Assembly (NCBI GenBank): GCA_965195345.1
Contig: OZ239628.1
Location: 387,940 to 419,939, forward strand
Direction: 5' to 3'
Source: an uncultured Thiomicrospira sp.
Lineage (GTDB): Bacteria; Pseudomonadota; Gammaproteobacteria; CAKMZV01
Length of the DNA stretch: 32,000 nucleotides
Part shown: one piece after another, positions 16,989-27,963 of the stretch
Layout of the letters: the number at the start of each line of letters is the position of its first letter
Position numbering within the stretch: position 1 is the first letter of the stretch
Translations under genes and position numbers: made by a program
Notes under the pieces: model-generated
What the model saw: only the letters and a program-made list of their open reading frames with translations
Database searches by the model: none
Told to the model about the DNA's origin: nothing

Positions 16989-19172
16989 ATGAAAAGTTTT
17001 TTTGTAAAAATCATAGCAAATGTAGTCACTATTTTTGTGATTGCCGTTACGGGGGTACATGCACAAGAGATTGAACGAGCAGGGCAAGTAGATGCCATAA
17101 AGCAGAGTGTTTTTGAGCGGGATTTGGAAAATAATATTAGCAGTGCGCTCAGGTTACAGCTCGGTAGCATTCCTTTTTTGGTTCAAGTGAGTGCTGAATT
17201 GCGCTCGATAAAAACATACGCGATTGATACTGTCTCCATATATCAGCCGAGTTCTGTTGAAGCGCCTTCTCTTGAAAGTAAAAAAACAATTGTGAGACAA
17301 CAGCTGCAAGAAGTTGATGCTGGTAGAACGAATCAAAACATTGATCCTGCTGACGATGGAGGCCAAGGTATTTCAAATGCTTTGCCAGGAGCCCCAATTC
17401 TTTTGACGAATAGTGACGATGGATCTGAGCAAAATCAGCCGAGAAGAAGTCAACCTATAACTGAGGTCATTCAATCAACTGAGCCTATCAGTGAAGCGTC
17501 AGAAAGTCAACCGAGAAGTGTTGGTCGATTTGTGAATACCACCCGTGAAACGTTCATTGAAAGTCATGTGTTAATTGACAGAATTGACGTCAAGCTATGG
17601 CTTCCATCTGATTTGGAACCTAGTAGAATTCGTTTTCTCAAACACTTGGTTTCTGAAAAAGCAAGAATTAATTTAATAAGGGGCGATCAGTTTACAACTA
17701 TTTTAACAAATTTTCCAGAAACTGAAAAAAAGGAAGATACCCTAACAACTAACCAGAATAGCTCAACTGAGTCTATAAATATTGATAATATTGGTCGGAG
17801 AATAGGATTAGATAGAGTAGTAAGTGAGCTGAGTCAAAACAATTGGTTACCTTGGGCGCTTGCTGGGTTACTCTTTTTATGGTTATTGTTTTTGCTTTTC
17901 CGCAAAAAAAGAACCGCGCATCACCAACCGCCGATCGCAACGTACCATCACAGCGATGTTCCATTTAACCCTCCATCATTAACGAACATCAACCCTCCTG
18001 AATCCGCATCTCTTGAAGATAAACAACAAGATCACGAACATAAACAGCGATTGAAAATTCTTAATGAAGACATAGTGAGTAATATCATGCTGCATGAAGG
18101 GTTGTTGCTGAATGCGCTAAATAACCCTAACCTTGCAATAGAAAAAGTACGATTTACGGCTTGGTTGATTAAATTGCTTGGCACAGCCGTGGTTGCAAAG
18201 TATGCATATGATCAGCTTAATGAAAGCGAATTAAAAAACGCGAATGCGTTGCAAGAAGTTATTGAACAAAGCACATTGATAGAACAATGTGAATGGGCAG
18301 CAAAGGTGCATAGAAGCTTACGCGATAGTGAGTCGCTTTCTAATAAAAATATTTCCCAACCTTTTGATTTCTTAAATGAAATGAATGATCAGAAATTGAA
18401 ACGCTTGCTAAATGAAGAGCATGTGCAGGCAAAAGCACTGATACTTTCTCAAATTGATCAACGACGCTCGGCAGCAATCCTTGCTATGTTTTCTGCTGAG
18501 GAACAAGCAAGTATTGCCATAGCAATGGGGAAACTTACGACACTTCCAGTATCTTCATTTCATGACATAGCTAATCAATTAGCTCGTAAGGCTCAAAGCA
18601 TTCCAGAAGTAAATGAGCTTAACATTGATGGAACGGAAGCGCTAGTGCAGATGATAGAGTCCATGGATTTGGCGAATGGAACAGCGTTCCTGAATGAATT
18701 GAGAAAACAAAATCCTGATCAATATTATCGCATTAAGAAATTGTATATGGGCTTTGAGGATATTCCAAAAATTCCGAAGGCTATATTGAAAAACTTTTTG
18801 CGTGAAATTGAACGAGAAGAGTTGGTTACGGCACTGTACGATGAGGAAGATGCTTTTAGAGAACAGTTACTCAGTGCGCTTCCTGATCGAGCAAAGGCAT
18901 TAGTTCAGCAGTTATTGAGTGAAATACAAACACCAACTGCAGCAAAGATTATGCAATCGAAAAAAATGATTAGCACCAAAGCAAGGCAGTTATTGCGAGC
19001 TAAAGTATTTGAATTACCAACAGATGAAGAGACCTTCACAGCGTCTTCAACATCTGAAGCAGGGCTACAAGAAGAGTCTATAGTTCCCTCTATAGAGGTT
19101 GAGTCAAGGCTTTCGGAAGAGTCAAACACAGGGTCAAGAAGCTCCTCAAACCTTAATAACTTAGAAAAATGA
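16989..19172 (+). CDS. Membrane protein with a FliF-like periplasmic region fused to a FliG-like (N/M/C) cytoplasmic region
   Basis: 727-aa ORF. A hydrophobic N-terminus spans aa 5-24 and a second TM spans aa 286-304 (WLPWALAGLLFLWLLFLLF), followed by RKKR. The periplasmic aa 190-242 segment IDRIDVKLWLPSDLEPSRIRFLKHLVSEKARINLIRGDQFTTILTNF matches the FliF/YscJ C-terminal ring-domain pattern (i.rlsVaV...l..i..lv....g....RGD.v.v...F). The cytoplasmic part has FliG hallmarks: LLNEEHVQAKALILSQI (EHPQ-type motif), LYMGFEDI (MFxFEDl), and ILKNFLREIEREELVTALYDEEDAFREQLLSALPDRAKAL (iq.lLrev....La.ALkga.ee.re.il.nms.RAa). Confidence 0.7.
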   Translation: MKSFFVKIIANVVTIFVIAVTGVHAQEIERAGQVDAIKQSVFERDLENNISSALRLQLGSIPFLVQVSAELRSIKTYAIDTVSIYQPSSVEAPSLESKKTIVRQQLQEVDAGRTNQNIDPADDGGQGISNALPGAPILLTNSDDGSEQNQPRRSQPITEVIQSTEPISEASESQPRSVGRFVNTTRETFIESHVLIDRIDVKLWLPSDLEPSRIRFLKHLVSEKARINLIRGDQFTTILTNFPETEKKEDTLTTNQNSSTESINIDNIGRRIGLDRVVSELSQNNWLPWALAGLLFLWLLFLLFRKKRTAHHQPPIATYHHSDVPFNPPSLTNINPPESASLEDKQQDHEHKQRLKILNEDIVSNIMLHEGLLLNALNNPNLAIEKVRFTAWLIKLLGTAVVAKYAYDQLNESELKNANALQEVIEQSTLIEQCEWAAKVHRSLRDSESLSNKNISQPFDFLNEMNDQKLKRLLNEEHVQAKALILSQIDQRRSAAILAMFSAEEQASIAIAMGKLTTLPVSSFHDIANQLARKAQSIPEVNELNIDGTEALVQMIESMDLANGTAFLNELRKQNPDQYYRIKKLYMGFEDIPKIPKAILKNFLREIEREELVTALYDEEDAFREQLLSALPDRAKALVQQLLSEIQTPTAAKIMQSKKMISTKARQLLRAKVFELPTDEETFTASSTSEAGLQEESIVPSIEVESRLSEESNTGSRSSSNLNNLEK

Positions 19173-19948
19173 AAACACTAATTAGTCGATTAATAGCAAT
19201 GGCTTTGGTAGGGTACGCAGCTTACAGCATTATTGTTTTTCCAGAGCATACAGCTCTTTTTACGCATGCAGAATCAGTGATTTTGGTATTGGGTGGTACA
19301 TTCGCAGCAAGCCTGATGAGCTTTAATATTGAGACAATATTGAAGGCATTTTTAAGCTTTTTTAAAGGTCTTATTTATGCCTCAGACAATCAGTCAAAGA
19401 TCAGAGAAATAAAAGAAATCATTACAATTGCAGAACGCGTTAATGAAACAAACGGATTCGGATGTATTGATGATATGTTAGAACAAAAAAAAAAATATTC
19501 AGATTTTGTGCGATTAGGATTAGAGCTGATTTCTGCGGGTTACAGCGAAGTTGGACTTAGAGTACAGCTAACAAATTTTGCAGATGAACTAGATGAAGAA
19601 GAGCGTTTGATGGAAGACGTTTGGTTTCAATTTGCAAACTATGCTCCAGCTTTGGGAATGGTTGGAACAGTTATAGGGTTGATTCTTATGTTGGATAATC
19701 TTGATGTCAATAGTTTAAATATTGGAGCTGGACTTTCATTGGCACTGTTGACTACTTTGTACGGTGTTTGTATAGCGAACTTTATTTTCAAACCAACTGC
19801 TCGGTTTTTAGCTGAAGAACGATTGAAAAAATCCAGAAATTTAGCACTTTATTTAGAAGCAATGCTAATGGTACAAAAAAAAACAAGTCCAATTTTAATG
19901 AAAGATTACTTAAATAGTAGCTTGCCTATTAAATTGCAATTAAAGTAA
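19169..19948 (+). CDS. motA: MotA/PomA-type stator channel subunit (4 TM)
   Basis: 259-aa ORF whose ATG overlaps the upstream TGA (ATGA at 19169-19172). It has two N-terminal TMs, a ~100-aa cytoplasmic loop and two C-terminal TMs. Signatures are YAPALGMVGTVIGLILML and ALLTTLYGVCIANFIFKPTARFL. The two prolines align with E. coli MotA P173 and P222. Confidence 0.85.
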   Translation: MKTLISRLIAMALVGYAAYSIIVFPEHTALFTHAESVILVLGGTFAASLMSFNIETILKAFLSFFKGLIYASDNQSKIREIKEIITIAERVNETNGFGCIDDMLEQKKKYSDFVRLGLELISAGYSEVGLRVQLTNFADELDEEERLMEDVWFQFANYAPALGMVGTVIGLILMLDNLDVNSLNIGAGLSLALLTTLYGVCIANFIFKPTARFLAEERLKKSRNLALYLEAMLMVQKKTSPILMKDYLNSSLPIKLQLK

Positions 19949-19964
19949 TGTTAAGAATAAGCCT

Positions 19965-19993
19965 AAAATCAACTTCTGTGAAGATTGATTTTT
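19965..19993 (+). other. Stem-loop in the motA-motB intergenic spacer
   Basis: The arm aaaatcaacttc (19965-19976) pairs with gaagattgatttt (19980-19992), with a tgt loop. This gives a 12-bp stem with one bulged A, ending in a short T run. The motB-like RBS AAGGA follows at 20001-20005. Confidence 0.45.
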
Positions 19994-20014
19994 CGTAACT
20001 AAGGATACGGCTTC

Positions 20015-20734
20015 ATGAATTCAGTTTTACGCAAAAAAAAGTCTATCAATAGAACAGATAACCTTTGGTTAATAACCTATTCAGATGTTGTGACGTTACT
20101 GTTGGTTTTTTTTGTGCTAATCATCGCTTTTTCAGTCGTTGATCAATCTAAATTTGAAGTGATTGCTGAAGCCATAAAAGCAAATAAGTTCGATGGGAAA
20201 AAGACGCTTCCTTTTCAAAAATTTGAACAAGAATTGCAAAAAATTATCGAAAAAAATGATTTAGAAGAAAAGGTTGTTGTAAATAAACAACCTCTAGGCG
20301 TTAGTATTGAACTTTCTGGTGAAAGTCTATTCCAATCTGGAGAAGCTATTTTGAATGCAACGGGTAGCCTCGCAATAAAACAATTAGCGAAGGCTATAAA
20401 AAACATTGAATATCCTAACTATCAAGTAGAGATTGAAGGACATACCGATGATGTGCCAATAAATAATGAGAAATACTCTTCCAATTGGGAATTGTCTGTC
20501 TTTCGCGCCATTGATGTGCTTAAGCTGTTAACAGAGCAGGGAATACCCAATGATAAATTCAAAATAGCTGGTTACGGAGAAACAAAACCTAAATATTCAA
20601 ATGAAACGGCTGATGGTTTACCTAATGTCGCTAACAGAGCTAAAAACAGACGAATAGAGATTAATGTTTTTCGTAAGGAGCGGCGTTATAGGGAATCGTC
20701 AACAAAAGAGGAAAATCAAAACACAGAAAAGTAG
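20015..20734 (+). CDS. motB: MotB-type stator subunit with OmpA-like peptidoglycan-binding domain
   Basis: 239-aa ORF. It has a single N-terminal TM, NLWLITYSDVVTLLLVFFVLIIAF, carrying the conserved protonatable Asp (D24, nt 20084-20086). A plug-like segment follows the TM. The C-terminal OmpA-like motifs are IEGHTDDVPI, SNWELSVFRAIDV, GYGETKP and NRAKNRRIEI. Confidence 0.88.
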   Translation: MNSVLRKKKSINRTDNLWLITYSDVVTLLLVFFVLIIAFSVVDQSKFEVIAEAIKANKFDGKKTLPFQKFEQELQKIIEKNDLEEKVVVNKQPLGVSIELSGESLFQSGEAILNATGSLAIKQLAKAIKNIEYPNYQVEIEGHTDDVPINNEKYSSNWELSVFRAIDVLKLLTEQGIPNDKFKIAGYGETKPKYSNETADGLPNVANRAKNRRIEINVFRKERRYRESSTKEENQNTEK

Positions 20735-25504: not shown

Positions 25505-26629
25505 TTATATGGTCATCGGCATGATGACGTGCTGCAAGTGTACATCATCATCTTTTTCTTCAATAAGAACGCTGGCAGTGGGCGTGGATATTTTTATATT
25601 GATGATGGGTTGACTTAATGTGCTTATCGTTTGCTGTAGGTAGCCTTCATTAAAGGCAATTTCAAGATGTTCACCATCATAAGAAGCAGACATGACAACT
25701 TCGGACTTTTCCTGCTCGGCATTTAAGCAAGTTATCGTAGCAGTGTCGTCTTCTTTGGCTATTAAGCGCACCTGCCTCGTAGAATCTTTGTTAATAAGCG
25801 TCGCCTGTTTCAATGTTTTTGAGAAGCTGTCGCAATCAGCACTGAAGGTGTAATCATTATTTTGAGGGATAACACCGGCGTAGGAAGGAAAAGAACCAAC
25901 GATTAATTTGCTGGCAAACGTTAGGTTTTCTGTGCGCTTTAGCTGAAATGAAATGAAATTGTCACTGATTGAAAGAGTCAGGTCTCCTTTTTCATCTTCA
26001 AGCAATCTTTTAATTTCAGTGACTGCTTTGAGCGGAATAATAATACTACAATCGCTATCAATTTCTTTTTCTAAAGAAGATACCGCACTTGCTAAACGAT
26101 GACCATCGGTGGCGACTACTCGGATTTGAGTTCCTTGGGCTTCAAGTAACATGCCTCGCAAAGGCGCTCTGATATCCTTAGTTGAAATGGCAAAAGATAC
26201 TTTATTGATAAGTGTTTTTAGTGTTTTCTTAGAAACAGTTATTGATTGATCAAAGTTGGTAAGGTCTAGCTGCGGAAATCCTTCGGAAGGCAAGGTTGAA
26301 AGATTGTAGCGTGCGTAATCAGTATGAATGACCGCTTGTGTATCAGAAAATTCAATGGCGATGGTTTCTGCTGTGGTGCTTGACACGATGTCGAGAAGTT
26401 TTTGAGCTCCAAGTGTCGTATCAAATTTACCTCCAGCGATCTCTCCTTCAGGCATTGGTAGTTGAGCAACCATTTGCAATTCAGTATCTGTAGTGGTGAG
26501 GACCATTCCAGATTCATCAACTTGCAGTTTTACGTTGCCAAGGATCGGCAAAATTTTCACACGATCAATAACACTTGCTATATTTTGTAGCACTTGATAG
26601 AGTGGCTTTCTCTCAAATAATAGTTTCAT
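25505..26629 (-). CDS. dnaN: DNA polymerase III beta sliding clamp
   Basis: 374-aa ORF immediately downstream of dnaA. The N-terminus is typical (MKLLFERKPLYQVLQNIASVI...PILGNVKL) and the length fits three domains. Confidence 0.95.
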   Translation of the reverse strand: MKLLFERKPLYQVLQNIASVIDRVKILPILGNVKLQVDESGMVLTTTDTELQMVAQLPMPEGEIAGGKFDTTLGAQKLLDIVSSTTAETIAIEFSDTQAVIHTDYARYNLSTLPSEGFPQLDLTNFDQSITVSKKTLKTLINKVSFAISTKDIRAPLRGMLLEAQGTQIRVVATDGHRLASAVSSLEKEIDSDCSIIIPLKAVTEIKRLLEDEKGDLTLSISDNFISFQLKRTENLTFASKLIVGSFPSYAGVIPQNNDYTFSADCDSFSKTLKQATLINKDSTRQVRLIAKEDDTATITCLNAEQEKSEVVMSASYDGEHLEIAFNEGYLQQTISTLSQPIINIKISTPTASVLIEEKDDDVHLQHVIMPMTI

Positions 26630-26637
26630 GGGTTAGT

Positions 26638-27963
26638 CTAGTTGGACAAGGTTATAAAAAGATTGTTAAAGTCGTTCTCAAAATTGGTATTTTCTTTTCG
26701 CAATCGTTCAACATTACGACAAGCATGCAAAACAGTGGTATGGTCTCGAGCGAATGCATCTCCAATTTCTGACAAACTTAGATTGGTGAGTTGTTTTGCC
26801 ATAGCCATAGCCATATGGCGTGCACGAACAACAGGTTGACGGCGGACTTTACCAAGTAAGTCGGTTGAGCGTAAACGGAAGTAGGAGGCAACGGTTTTAA
26901 TGATTTGGTCCACTGATACAGCGCGCGAATGTGAAGCAAAAACATTATCCAATGCTTCATGAGTGCTAAGCAGTGTCATAGGTTTACCACTGAAGTCGTG
27001 GTAGGCTTTGAGTGTCGCAAGTGCGCTCTGAAGTTCGCGAACGTTCGAACGAATTTTTTGGGCGACTAAGAAAGCAATTTCTTCTGGTAGGTCAAGGGAA
27101 ACTTCGCGAGCTTTTGCCTTAAGTATGGCTACACGGAGTTCGAGCTCTGGTGGTTTAAGCTCAATAGCTAATCCAGCTCCAAAGCGCGAGCGCAACCGAT
27201 CACTAAATCCACTCAGATCTTTCGGATAGCGGTCACAAGTAAAGACTACTTGTTTATGACCTTCAAGCATAAGATTGACTATTTGAAAAAGCTCTTCTTG
27301 TGTGCTGGCTTTTTCTGCGAAAAAATGCACATCATCAATCAAAAGAACGTCAAAGCTACGATAAAACCTTTTGAACTGTGGCATTGTCTTCTCGTTTAGA
27401 GAAGCGATGAAGTTAGAAACAAAACGAGGAGCGTGCTGATAGAAAACTTTTGTGTTTGTATGGCGAATCATATGATTGCCAATTGAATAAAGTATGTGCG
27501 TTTTTCCTAGTCCAGAGCGACCATATATAAAGAAAGGGTTGTAAATGCTCGCTTGAGTGTTTTCGGCAATTTGTTTGGCAATAGATGACACCATAGTATT
27601 GGACTCGCCAGTAACAAAATTGCTAAATGAAAATTGTGGTTGCAATCCTGCTTCTTTAATGCGCTCATTGACATCGGCATGATTAGCGCGCGCTTGTAGT
27701 CGAGAAATTGAGTTTTCTTCAATATCTTCTTCGGCTTCTAGGTGTATGTGCAAAGTTTGGGGGCTTGCAGAGTCAATCGTGCTTTTTAGTATTTCCCAAT
27801 GAGCATTGGCATGTAAGCAATCTGCGAAATGTTCGTTTGGAGCTATGATGTGAAGTTTATTTCCATTAAGCTTTGCTCTTAAGGGAGCGACCCACCGCTC
27901 AAAGTCATGTTGCTCTAACGTATTCTCAAGTAGCCTAACACATCTGTTCCAGATGTCACTCAT
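26638..27963 (-). CDS. dnaA: Chromosomal replication initiator DnaA
   Basis: 441-aa ORF with Walker A GRSGLGKTH, Walker B LLIDDVHF, a sensor/box VII region, and a C-terminal DNA-binding domain (VRARHMAMAMAKQLTNLSLSEIGDAFARDHTTVLHA). Confidence 0.97.
   Translation of the reverse strand: MSDIWNRCVRLLENTLEQHDFERWVAPLRAKLNGNKLHIIAPNEHFADCLHANAHWEILKSTIDSASPQTLHIHLEAEEDIEENSISRLQARANHADVNERIKEAGLQPQFSFSNFVTGESNTMVSSIAKQIAENTQASIYNPFFIYGRSGLGKTHILYSIGNHMIRHTNTKVFYQHAPRFVSNFIASLNEKTMPQFKRFYRSFDVLLIDDVHFFAEKASTQEELFQIVNLMLEGHKQVVFTCDRYPKDLSGFSDRLRSRFGAGLAIELKPPELELRVAILKAKAREVSLDLPEEIAFLVAQKIRSNVRELQSALATLKAYHDFSGKPMTLLSTHEALDNVFASHSRAVSVDQIIKTVASYFRLRSTDLLGKVRRQPVVRARHMAMAMAKQLTNLSLSEIGDAFARDHTTVLHACRNVERLRKENTNFENDFNNLFITLSN

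Follow-up and report, generated by a model that had tools for sequence, protein, structure and literature searches.

A MotAB-like stator pair beside a FliF-FliG fusion gene in a Thiomicrospira genome: probable stator of a non-flagellar envelope cassette

What does a flagellar-type stator do in a genome where no flagellum is found, and where the gene directly in front of it encodes FliF-like and FliG-like parts in a single chain? The question is raised by a locus in a stretch of 32,000 nucleotides from an uncultured Thiomicrospira sp. (contig OZ239628.1, positions 387,940 to 419,939; hereafter the window), in which a MotA-like and a MotB-like gene follow a gene for such a fusion. Flagellar-type stators are treated in the classification of PMC12505986 as specialised for turning flagella. 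The explanation that we favour, and consider probable, is that the pair serves, under selection, as the dedicated stator of a FliF-FliG fusion rotor that is not flagellar and belongs to a conserved envelope cassette. No published description of this cassette was found in the literature searched, and the finding suggests an envelope machine, not described before, that is assembled from parts of the flagellar motor. Its significance is that a genome without a detected flagellar set has retained a stator that is constrained as tightly as housekeeping genes and is tied to a presumed minimal one-chain rotor and predicted outer-membrane partners.

Stator class and flagellar gene content

The features on which an earlier note, made from the letters without database searches, had placed the pair in the MotAB/PomAB class hold up when aligned with proteins of known structure. 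Hydropathy gives the MotA-like protein four transmembrane (TM) segments (residues 5-23, 36-54, about 155-180 and 185-207) with a TM2-TM3 loop of about 100 residues. In phmmer, the alignment with Vibrio PomA covers the full length (8brd/8bri, E=1.2e-24) and sets P160 of YAPALGM (residues 158-164) and P209 of FKPTA (residues 207-211) against PomA P151 and P199, which are the positions of the MotA prolines P173 and P222 named in that note. The protein matches Pfam MotA_ExbB (E=2.4e-17), and the PDB chains that it matches are all flagellar stators, namely PomA and the MotA of Clostridium, Aquifex, Bacillus and Campylobacter; no ExbB, TolQ, GldL or ZorA chain was returned at E<0.01 in the same PDB sequence search. 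Its best NCBIfam match is PomA (115 bits, against a cut-off of 341), followed by MotP and MotA, and it lacks the 15-residue loop insert of E. coli MotA, as do PomA-like proteins. Thr167, Thr195 and Thr196 correspond to PomA T158, T185 and T186, which are required for Na+ conduction (PMC6677748). Two of the three are Ala in the flagellar MotAs of related Gammaproteobacteria. The triad is a hint that the stator may be coupled to Na+.

The MotB-like protein is equally complete. Its D24, in the motif YSD, falls in the alignment on the channel Asp of the MotB from Clostridium sporogenes (6ysf/8ucs), which is matched in the PDB at E=3e-31, and Pfam MotB_plug (E=2.3e-15, residues 14-55) and OmpA (E=3.4e-19, residues 105-201) both score above their cut-offs, so that the channel Asp, the plug and the complete OmpA-like domain described in the earlier note are all in place. 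The peptidoglycan-binding motif NWELSVFRA starts at residue 157. The best NCBIfam match of the B subunit is MotD (166 bits, against a cut-off of 283), then MotB and MotS, and the MotBs of the cassette described below are short, with 220-241 residues against 268-386 in flagellar relatives of the same class.

Maximum-likelihood analysis of 44 MotA homologues, with E. coli TolQ/ExbB as the outgroup, places the window MotA inside the flagellar-type group. The TolQ and ExbB models of NCBIfam score the window stator at only 16-18 bits. The PDB matches, the tree, and the length and score against ZorA given further below uphold the choice of a MotAB/PomAB-class stator over ExbBD/TolQR or ZorAB, and together sequence and tree support reading the pair as a PomAB/MotPS-like flagellar-type stator. 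The genome also has a genuine tolQ-tolR pair at ~1.694 Mb (43% and 41% identity to E. coli), and the MotAB pair is therefore not a replacement for TolQR.

Set beside the PomAB/MotPS-type stators (the 'FIT, TGI4' group of PMC12505986), the window pair is alike in its four-TM A subunit with a long loop, both prolines and the Thr triad, in its B subunit with channel Asp, plug and OmpA-like domain, and in the absence of an E. coli-type loop insert. It is unlike them in forming a separate clade, in its short MotB, in scoring below the equivalog cut-offs and in the replacement of the charge equivalent to R90; where they have a C-ring as partner, it has a FliF-FliG fusion anchored in the membrane, and no flagellum genes were found. 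Judged by alignment, the stator fits the flagellar group of PMC12505986 that has the shorter torque interface.

The genome is a single contig of 1,920,693 bases, estimated to be 99.7% complete, and was searched in all six frames. Profile searches of the complete genome gave no match to FHIPEP (FlhA), Flagellin_N, YscJ_FliF, Flg_bb_rod or FliMN_C, and the flagellar marker searches were positive in all four flagellated control genomes. The sole FliG_C match in the genome is the gene directly upstream of motA. The pair is not the stator of a flagellum in this genome, and an accessory role for a flagellum encoded elsewhere on the contig is rejected here because the flagellar marker families were not found. 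The earlier note had named as contrary evidence a placement inside ordinary flagellar motAB together with a flagellar system elsewhere; what we find is a separate clade and no flagellar set.

The FliF-FliG fusion and its cassette

The presumed rotor protein consists of a signal-anchor, about 260 periplasmic residues, a second TM segment and then FliG_M and FliG_C (Pfam 6e-12 and 1e-16, respectively), with hydropathy placing the TM segments at residues 5-23 and 286-304. Its AlphaFold (AF2) model, built on 10 sequences, has a mean predicted local distance difference test score (pLDDT) of 66, rising to 83-94 over residues 30-88, 180-240 and most of the cytoplasmic part; the model contains a beta-alpha-beta unit with two very long strands around a disordered insert. 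In Foldseek comparisons the cytoplasmic part matches full-length FliG (3hjl, E=8e-12), with a local match to FliG_C of the MotAB-FliG complex 8ucs at a template modelling score (TMt) of 0.85. The periplasmic part matches the ring-building motif 3 (RBM3)/collar of the FliF S-ring (7cg7, 6sd3, 8zdt and 8z4g; E~5e-4 to 1e-3, TMt ~0.5), and a precomputed Pfam YscJ_FliF_C match is present in the fusion of one relative. Because of these fold and family matches we regard the gene as a naturally occurring fusion between FliG and the ring-forming part of FliF, and the model suggests that its product would form a ring.

A word-based homologue search with the fusion returned only a 98% twin, and the family became visible by a full HMMER search: among 1.84 billion representatives, a fusion profile found 58 proteins at E<=1e-30 and 962 at E<=1e-10. 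The top 150 matches are mostly 560-800 residues long and align from the periplasmic domain to the end of FliG; homologues are annotated in their sources as hypothetical or as FliG. Of 401 genomes sampled evenly across the class, seven, from at least six families, encode long fusions, and a canonical FliG of ~340 residues accompanies the long fusion in one of the seven (G071). Carriers with flagellar genes and carriers without them both occur in the sample, and the window genome is a clear case of the second kind, with no flagellar gene set detected.

A fusion of these two proteins is not without precedent. The FliF-FliG fusion of Chlamydiaceae (PMC4768692) likewise joins a FliF-like periplasmic ring motif to a FliG-like part in one chain, but it has only ~330 residues, its ring motif is RBM2-like rather than RBM3/collar-like and its FliG part is a FliG-M-like region only; the chlamydial flagellar genes listed in PMC4768692 are FliF, FliL and FlhA only, and no stator is named there. 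The window fusion, in contrast, has 727 residues, a FliG_C torque domain and its own stator. Engineered Salmonella and Vibrio FliF-FliG fusions are described as assembling rings, in motors that still turn (PMC10941966, PMC11481574, PMC4768692).

Several relatives of the fusion have other surroundings. In two genomes of the same genus, G002 (L021 8861-12569) and G001 (L022), a fusion of 771-778 residues, 27-30% identical to that of the window, is followed by a gene for a KAP-family P-loop NTPase, and in G375 a 789-residue fusion is followed by a Sel1 protein. The window genome itself encodes, outside the window, a 642-residue FliG_M protein without FliG_C (G000:C1:1257984-1258502 region; L025:5916-7844 (-) and L025:7863-9341 (-)). 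This protein has a fusion-like topology, with a signal-anchor, ~300 periplasmic residues and a TM segment at 323-341, and its gene adjoins one for a Sel1-repeat protein that is a full-length homologue (26%, E=1e-34) of the Sel1/SPOR proteins flanking the cassettes of G071 and L053. The pair of genes for the 642-residue and Sel1 proteins is syntenic in G002.

The fusion and the stator belong to a core cassette whose order is barrel protein, tetratricopeptide-repeat (TPR) lipoprotein, FliF-FliG fusion, MotA and MotB. The contig of the closest public MotA (44% identity) reads 402-residue protein, TPR protein, 744-residue fusion and MotA, and a genome of a different genus in the same family (G004) has all six genes of the window block. 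Six further loci (G033, G301, L043, L054, L055 and L056) carry a protein of ~350-390 residues, TPR, fusion, MotA and MotB, except that the ~350-390-residue first gene was not seen in the G033 cassette; in G071 and L053 the order is Sel1/SPOR protein, MotA, MotB, a protein X, TPR and fusion. The fusion is linked with MotA-MotB in the window, in the close strain L057 and in G004, G033, G071, G301, L043, L053, L054 and L055; the contigs of L005 and L056 place MotA after the fusion and stop short of motB or inside it (inside it in L056). This gene set is kept together at 23-48% identity across families of Gammaproteobacteria.

The other members of the cassette are less readily classified. The first gene has no Pfam or NCBIfam match, yet it is homologous to the 350-390-residue first gene of the other cassettes (hhalign 97%, E=1.1e-10), with which it shares a conserved CxxxC pair, C168 and C172, in a periplasmic alpha/beta domain. 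The C-terminal strands of its AF2 model (mean pLDDT 68) match the 8-stranded outer-membrane barrels OmpA-TM, Ail and OmpX (Foldseek E~1e-4, TMt ~0.5). The TPR protein, which lies 5' of the fusion in every cassette examined, matches Pfam TPR_2 (E=2.5e-6), and its lipobox matches LPAM_1 at E=0.005, below the cut-off. The last gene of the block has no Pfam, NCBIfam or PADLOC match, and a homologue after motB is present only in G004 (34% identity) and missing from the other cassettes; it appears to be an accessory seen only in this family of genomes.

The trees agree with the gene order. In the MotA tree, all seven cassette MotAs included group with their nearest metagenomic relatives in a single clade (99/99 support). 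Outside it lie the flagellar MotAs of five genomes of the same class, an actinobacterial flagellar group and E. coli MotA. Since E. coli MotA is a long branch, only the cassette clade is relied on in this tree. The cassette MotBs also group together, with 87/90 support. G071 has both a cassette stator, 36% identical to the window MotA, and a separate flagellar stator (26-27%) with a canonical FliG. By gene set and order, stator clade and fold of the fusion, the window locus is a member of the cassette family. A precedent for flagellar-type stators with another job is Vibrio fischeri MotA2B2 (PMC3948606), an extra MotAB pair that the bacterium does not require to swim and that the flagellar regulator FlrA does not control; the likeness is one of description, and the V. 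fischeri host is flagellated.

Selection, the rotor-stator interface and competing explanations

Whether the stator is maintained can be judged from L057, a second strain with ~98-99% DNA identity to the window and the whole block in the same place; synonymous divergence between the two is ~4-10% per gene. The ratio of non-synonymous to synonymous change (pN/pS) is 0.04 for motA (seven synonymous and one non-synonymous difference) and 0 for motB (15 and none), as compared with 0.02 for fdhA (29 and two) and 0.03 for the U32 peptidase gene (17 and two). The stator genes are thus constrained like the adjoining housekeeping genes, and both are under purifying selection. Values for the rest of the block are 0.08 for the TPR gene (seven and two), 0.17 for the fusion gene (20 and 12), 0.18 for the first cassette gene (12 and eight) and 0.21 for the last gene (14 and 10).

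The charged residues through which MotA and FliG meet tell of partial conservation. The position of FliG R281 is Arg or Lys in all 11 fusions compared, and that of MotA E98 is Asp or Glu in 10 of 11 cassette MotAs (Asp101 in the window). The MotA R90 position is Arg in eight of the 11 cassettes; in the fusions of six of these eight, an acidic residue is retained at FliG D288/D289. In the window, G004 and L005 the R90 position is occupied by Glu (Glu93 in the window), Thr and Lys, and the FliG D288/D289 pair reads Gln-Leu, Arg-Leu and Gln-Leu, respectively. Loss on both sides is what a real MotA-FliG contact predicts; G071 and L053 break the R90-D288/D289 pattern.

The mechanism that we propose follows that of flagellar stators up to the point of output. 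MotA and MotB would form a stator unit, presumably MotA5:MotB2, in which ions pass MotB Asp24 and the TM3 and TM4 helices of MotA, and the plug helix would keep the channel shut until the OmpA-like domain anchors to peptidoglycan. The cytoplasmic loop of MotA would then push the FliG C-terminal domain, which here would belong to the upstream fusion with no flagellum involved. Stator and fusion would form the core of a flagellum-independent cassette that probably spans the envelope, and as a guess its output may be force or rotation delivered to outer-membrane partners. Both the 5:2 stoichiometry and the turning of a ring are inferred.

Several observations weigh against this reading of the pair as the dedicated stator of the fusion. 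All stator scores lie below the NCBIfam equivalog cut-offs (PomA, MotA and MotP; MotB, MotD and MotS). Both structure models were built from few sequences (10 and 8; mean pLDDT 66-68), and the FliF match is modest (E~5e-4). Half of the canonical electrostatic interface is lost in the window lineage (Glu93; Gln-Leu), and the charge co-variation rests on about two independent events. The association of the genes is not universal: G001, G002 and G375 have the fusion and no cassette-type MotA, and in G130 the cassette-type MotA lies ~650 kb from the fusion, from which it follows that the fusion can exist without a cassette stator. Conversely, the marine contigs L006 and L009 carry stand-alone MotAB pairs of the cassette clade with no fusion nearby.

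A bolder version of the proposal, which we regard as possible but hold with considerably less confidence, is that the cassette encodes a free-standing ion-driven rotary motor, with a fusion ring, a dedicated MotAB and a link to the outer membrane through the TPR lipoprotein and the small barrel, and with no need of a flagellum. If the rotary-motor reading holds, the cassette motor would be either a side branch of the ancestor of the flagellar motor or a re-used torque core given a new envelope task, and if the machine turns it would represent a new output for the 5:2 motor family. The cassette would in that case offer a concrete object for the question of how the core of the flagellar motor could work prior to or independently of the rod, filament and export apparatus, and with five genes it would be a very compact rotor and stator for structural and single-molecule studies.

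Somewhat less probable still, and in our view unlikely, is that the stator acts as a general energiser driven by the ion motive force, as TolQR and ExbBD do in pulling on TolA or TonB, with the FliG-like protein serving as a membrane adaptor that takes up a pulling or gating movement and hands it on to the periplasmic and outer-membrane partners, and not as a closed rotating ring. The TPR lipoprotein and barrel partners give the cassette an envelope-spanning layout like that of Tol-Pal, Ton and Glt/Agl, and the TolQR-TolA-Pal, ExbBD-TonB, AglRQS-Glt and GldLM systems resemble it in combining an ion-driven inner-membrane motor of the 5:2 type with periplasmic and outer-membrane partners that include TPR proteins and barrels. 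The loss of half of the canonical torque charge pairs in the window also speaks for an adaptor, as does the fact that ring formation is suggested by a modest fold match only. These energisers, however, belong to the TolQ/ExbB-type group and their B subunits have neither plug nor OmpA domain, whereas the window system has a flagellar-type motor whose receiver is FliG-like, not TonB- or TolA-like. The window MotB has retained a plug and a peptidoglycan anchor, both typical of units docked around a rotor, the periplasmic domain of the fusion resembles the ring-forming RBM3/collar of FliF, its cytoplasmic part covers all of FliG, and the R281/E98-type pair is kept almost throughout the family.

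It is very improbable that the locus is left over from a lost flagellum, in decay and no longer functional. The lack of matches to the flagellar marker families searched would be expected of such a remnant, and a 2025 survey found a rotor without filament proteins in 11% of non-motile species, for which remnants were among the explanations discussed (PMC12199754). All frames are nevertheless intact, the key residues are kept, the low pN/pS of motA and motB indicates present constraint, and the gene set with its non-flagellar partners is held together across families at the divergence noted above; in G071, moreover, the separate clade coexists with a true flagellar stator. We reject the remnant on these grounds of selection and synteny. 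Least credible of all, and likewise rejected, is a Zorya-like anti-phage or other defence module with a MotAB-like sensor: MotB does match the ZorB models of PADLOC (best E=5.6e-23), and there is a faint match of MotA to ZorA (E=7e-4), but ZorB is itself MotB-like, which makes the first match generic, MotA with its 259 residues is without the long ZorA tail and scores 16.5 bits with PADLOC ZorA and 14.8 against a cut-off of 500 in NCBIfam, PADLOC finds no ZorC/D/E-like or other defence match among the neighbours, and the locus lies in the core chromosome between the fdh genes and dnaA-dnaN, syntenic in the second strain.

Locus layout, gene junctions and neighbouring genes

In the window, six open reading frames on the forward strand lie between formate dehydrogenase genes and one convergent gene, with gaps of -4, 28, -4, 66 and 60 nt in 5' to 3' order (Table 1).

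Table 1. Features of the stator locus, in window coordinates
Feature	Position	Strand	Remarks
First cassette gene, 409 aa	15165-16394	+	signal peptide, periplasmic alpha/beta domain, predicted C-terminal small beta-barrel
TPR lipoprotein, 189 aa	16391-16960	+	4-nt overlap with first cassette gene
FliF(RBM3/beta-collar)-TM-FliG fusion, 727 aa	16989-19172	+	presumed rotor, stator partner
MotA-like stator A subunit, 259 aa	19169-19948	+	Pfam, PDB, TM and Pro evidence
ATGA start/stop overlap, fusion gene/motA	19169-19172	+	read from sequence
Run of 11 A inside motA	19485-19495	+	codons EQKKKY, cytoplasmic loop
motA-motB spacer, 66 nt	19949-20014	+	AU-rich hairpin, short T run, AAGGA
MotB-like stator B subunit, 239 aa	20015-20734	+	TM with Asp24, plug helix, OmpA-type peptidoglycan-binding domain
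Last local operon gene, 471 aa	20795-22210	+	signal peptide, strand-rich, no family match

The two junctions of motA, which the earlier note had singled out as unusual, are present as it described them but have little to say about the family. The motA ATG (19169-19171) overlaps the TGA (19170-19172) of the upstream gene, and since no ribosome-binding site is visible for motA, its translational coupling to the fusion gene is plausible. The layout of ATGA overlap and spacer is identical in L057, and among the cassettes compared the overlap and the 66-nt spacer are common only to the window and this strain: from gene coordinates, the gap between fusion and motA in the other cassettes is 8-45 nt, and that between motA and motB is -1 to 6 nt, with the one exception of 51 nt in L054. 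The overlap is thus a trait of two close strains, and the spacer is not a family trait either.

As for structure in the spacer, an AU-rich hairpin at ~19965-19993 is present, with a minimum free energy of -12.3 kcal/mol and z = -1.48, but it is unremarkable in that 17 of 200 shuffles fold equally well or better, and it received no terminator call and no Rfam family match. Three of the 66 nucleotides are substituted in L057, which equals the synonymous rate, and the substitutions include a loop change and an uncompensated G-to-A change that breaks a C-G pair of the stem. A role of the hairpin as attenuator or processing site is rejected on the shuffles, the missing terminator and Rfam calls and the drift at the synonymous rate, and no evidence for the spacer as a regulatory element was seen in its sequence. 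The motB gene has its own AAGGA Shine-Dalgarno motif at 20001-20005, 9 nt upstream of the ATG, and its frame cannot be extended upstream because of a TAA at 20000-20002.

The run of 11 A within motA has the same length in L057, and the frame is intact in both strains; a one-base slip in this run would truncate MotA.

Neighbouring genes vary among the cassettes. Directly after the cassette of L053 (L053:7614-11646) lie genes for a BBP2_2 barrel, a Wza-like Poly_export/SLBB protein and a Wzz/GNVR tyrosine-kinase-type protein, a possible hint that polysaccharide export may be an output of the cassette. The cassette of G033 runs into MoxR AAA, DUF58 and VWA genes, a Bat-like set (L023:11829-14906). 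In the window, dnaN and dnaA lie at 25505-27963 (-), ~3-6 kb downstream of the cassette, which places the block near the likely replication origin. The pntAB transhydrogenase genes are found at 5351-8375 (-), ~11 kb from the stator, and pntAB also adjoins the stand-alone MotAB pairs of L006 and L009; this proximity is probably either chance or a trace of shared ancestry.

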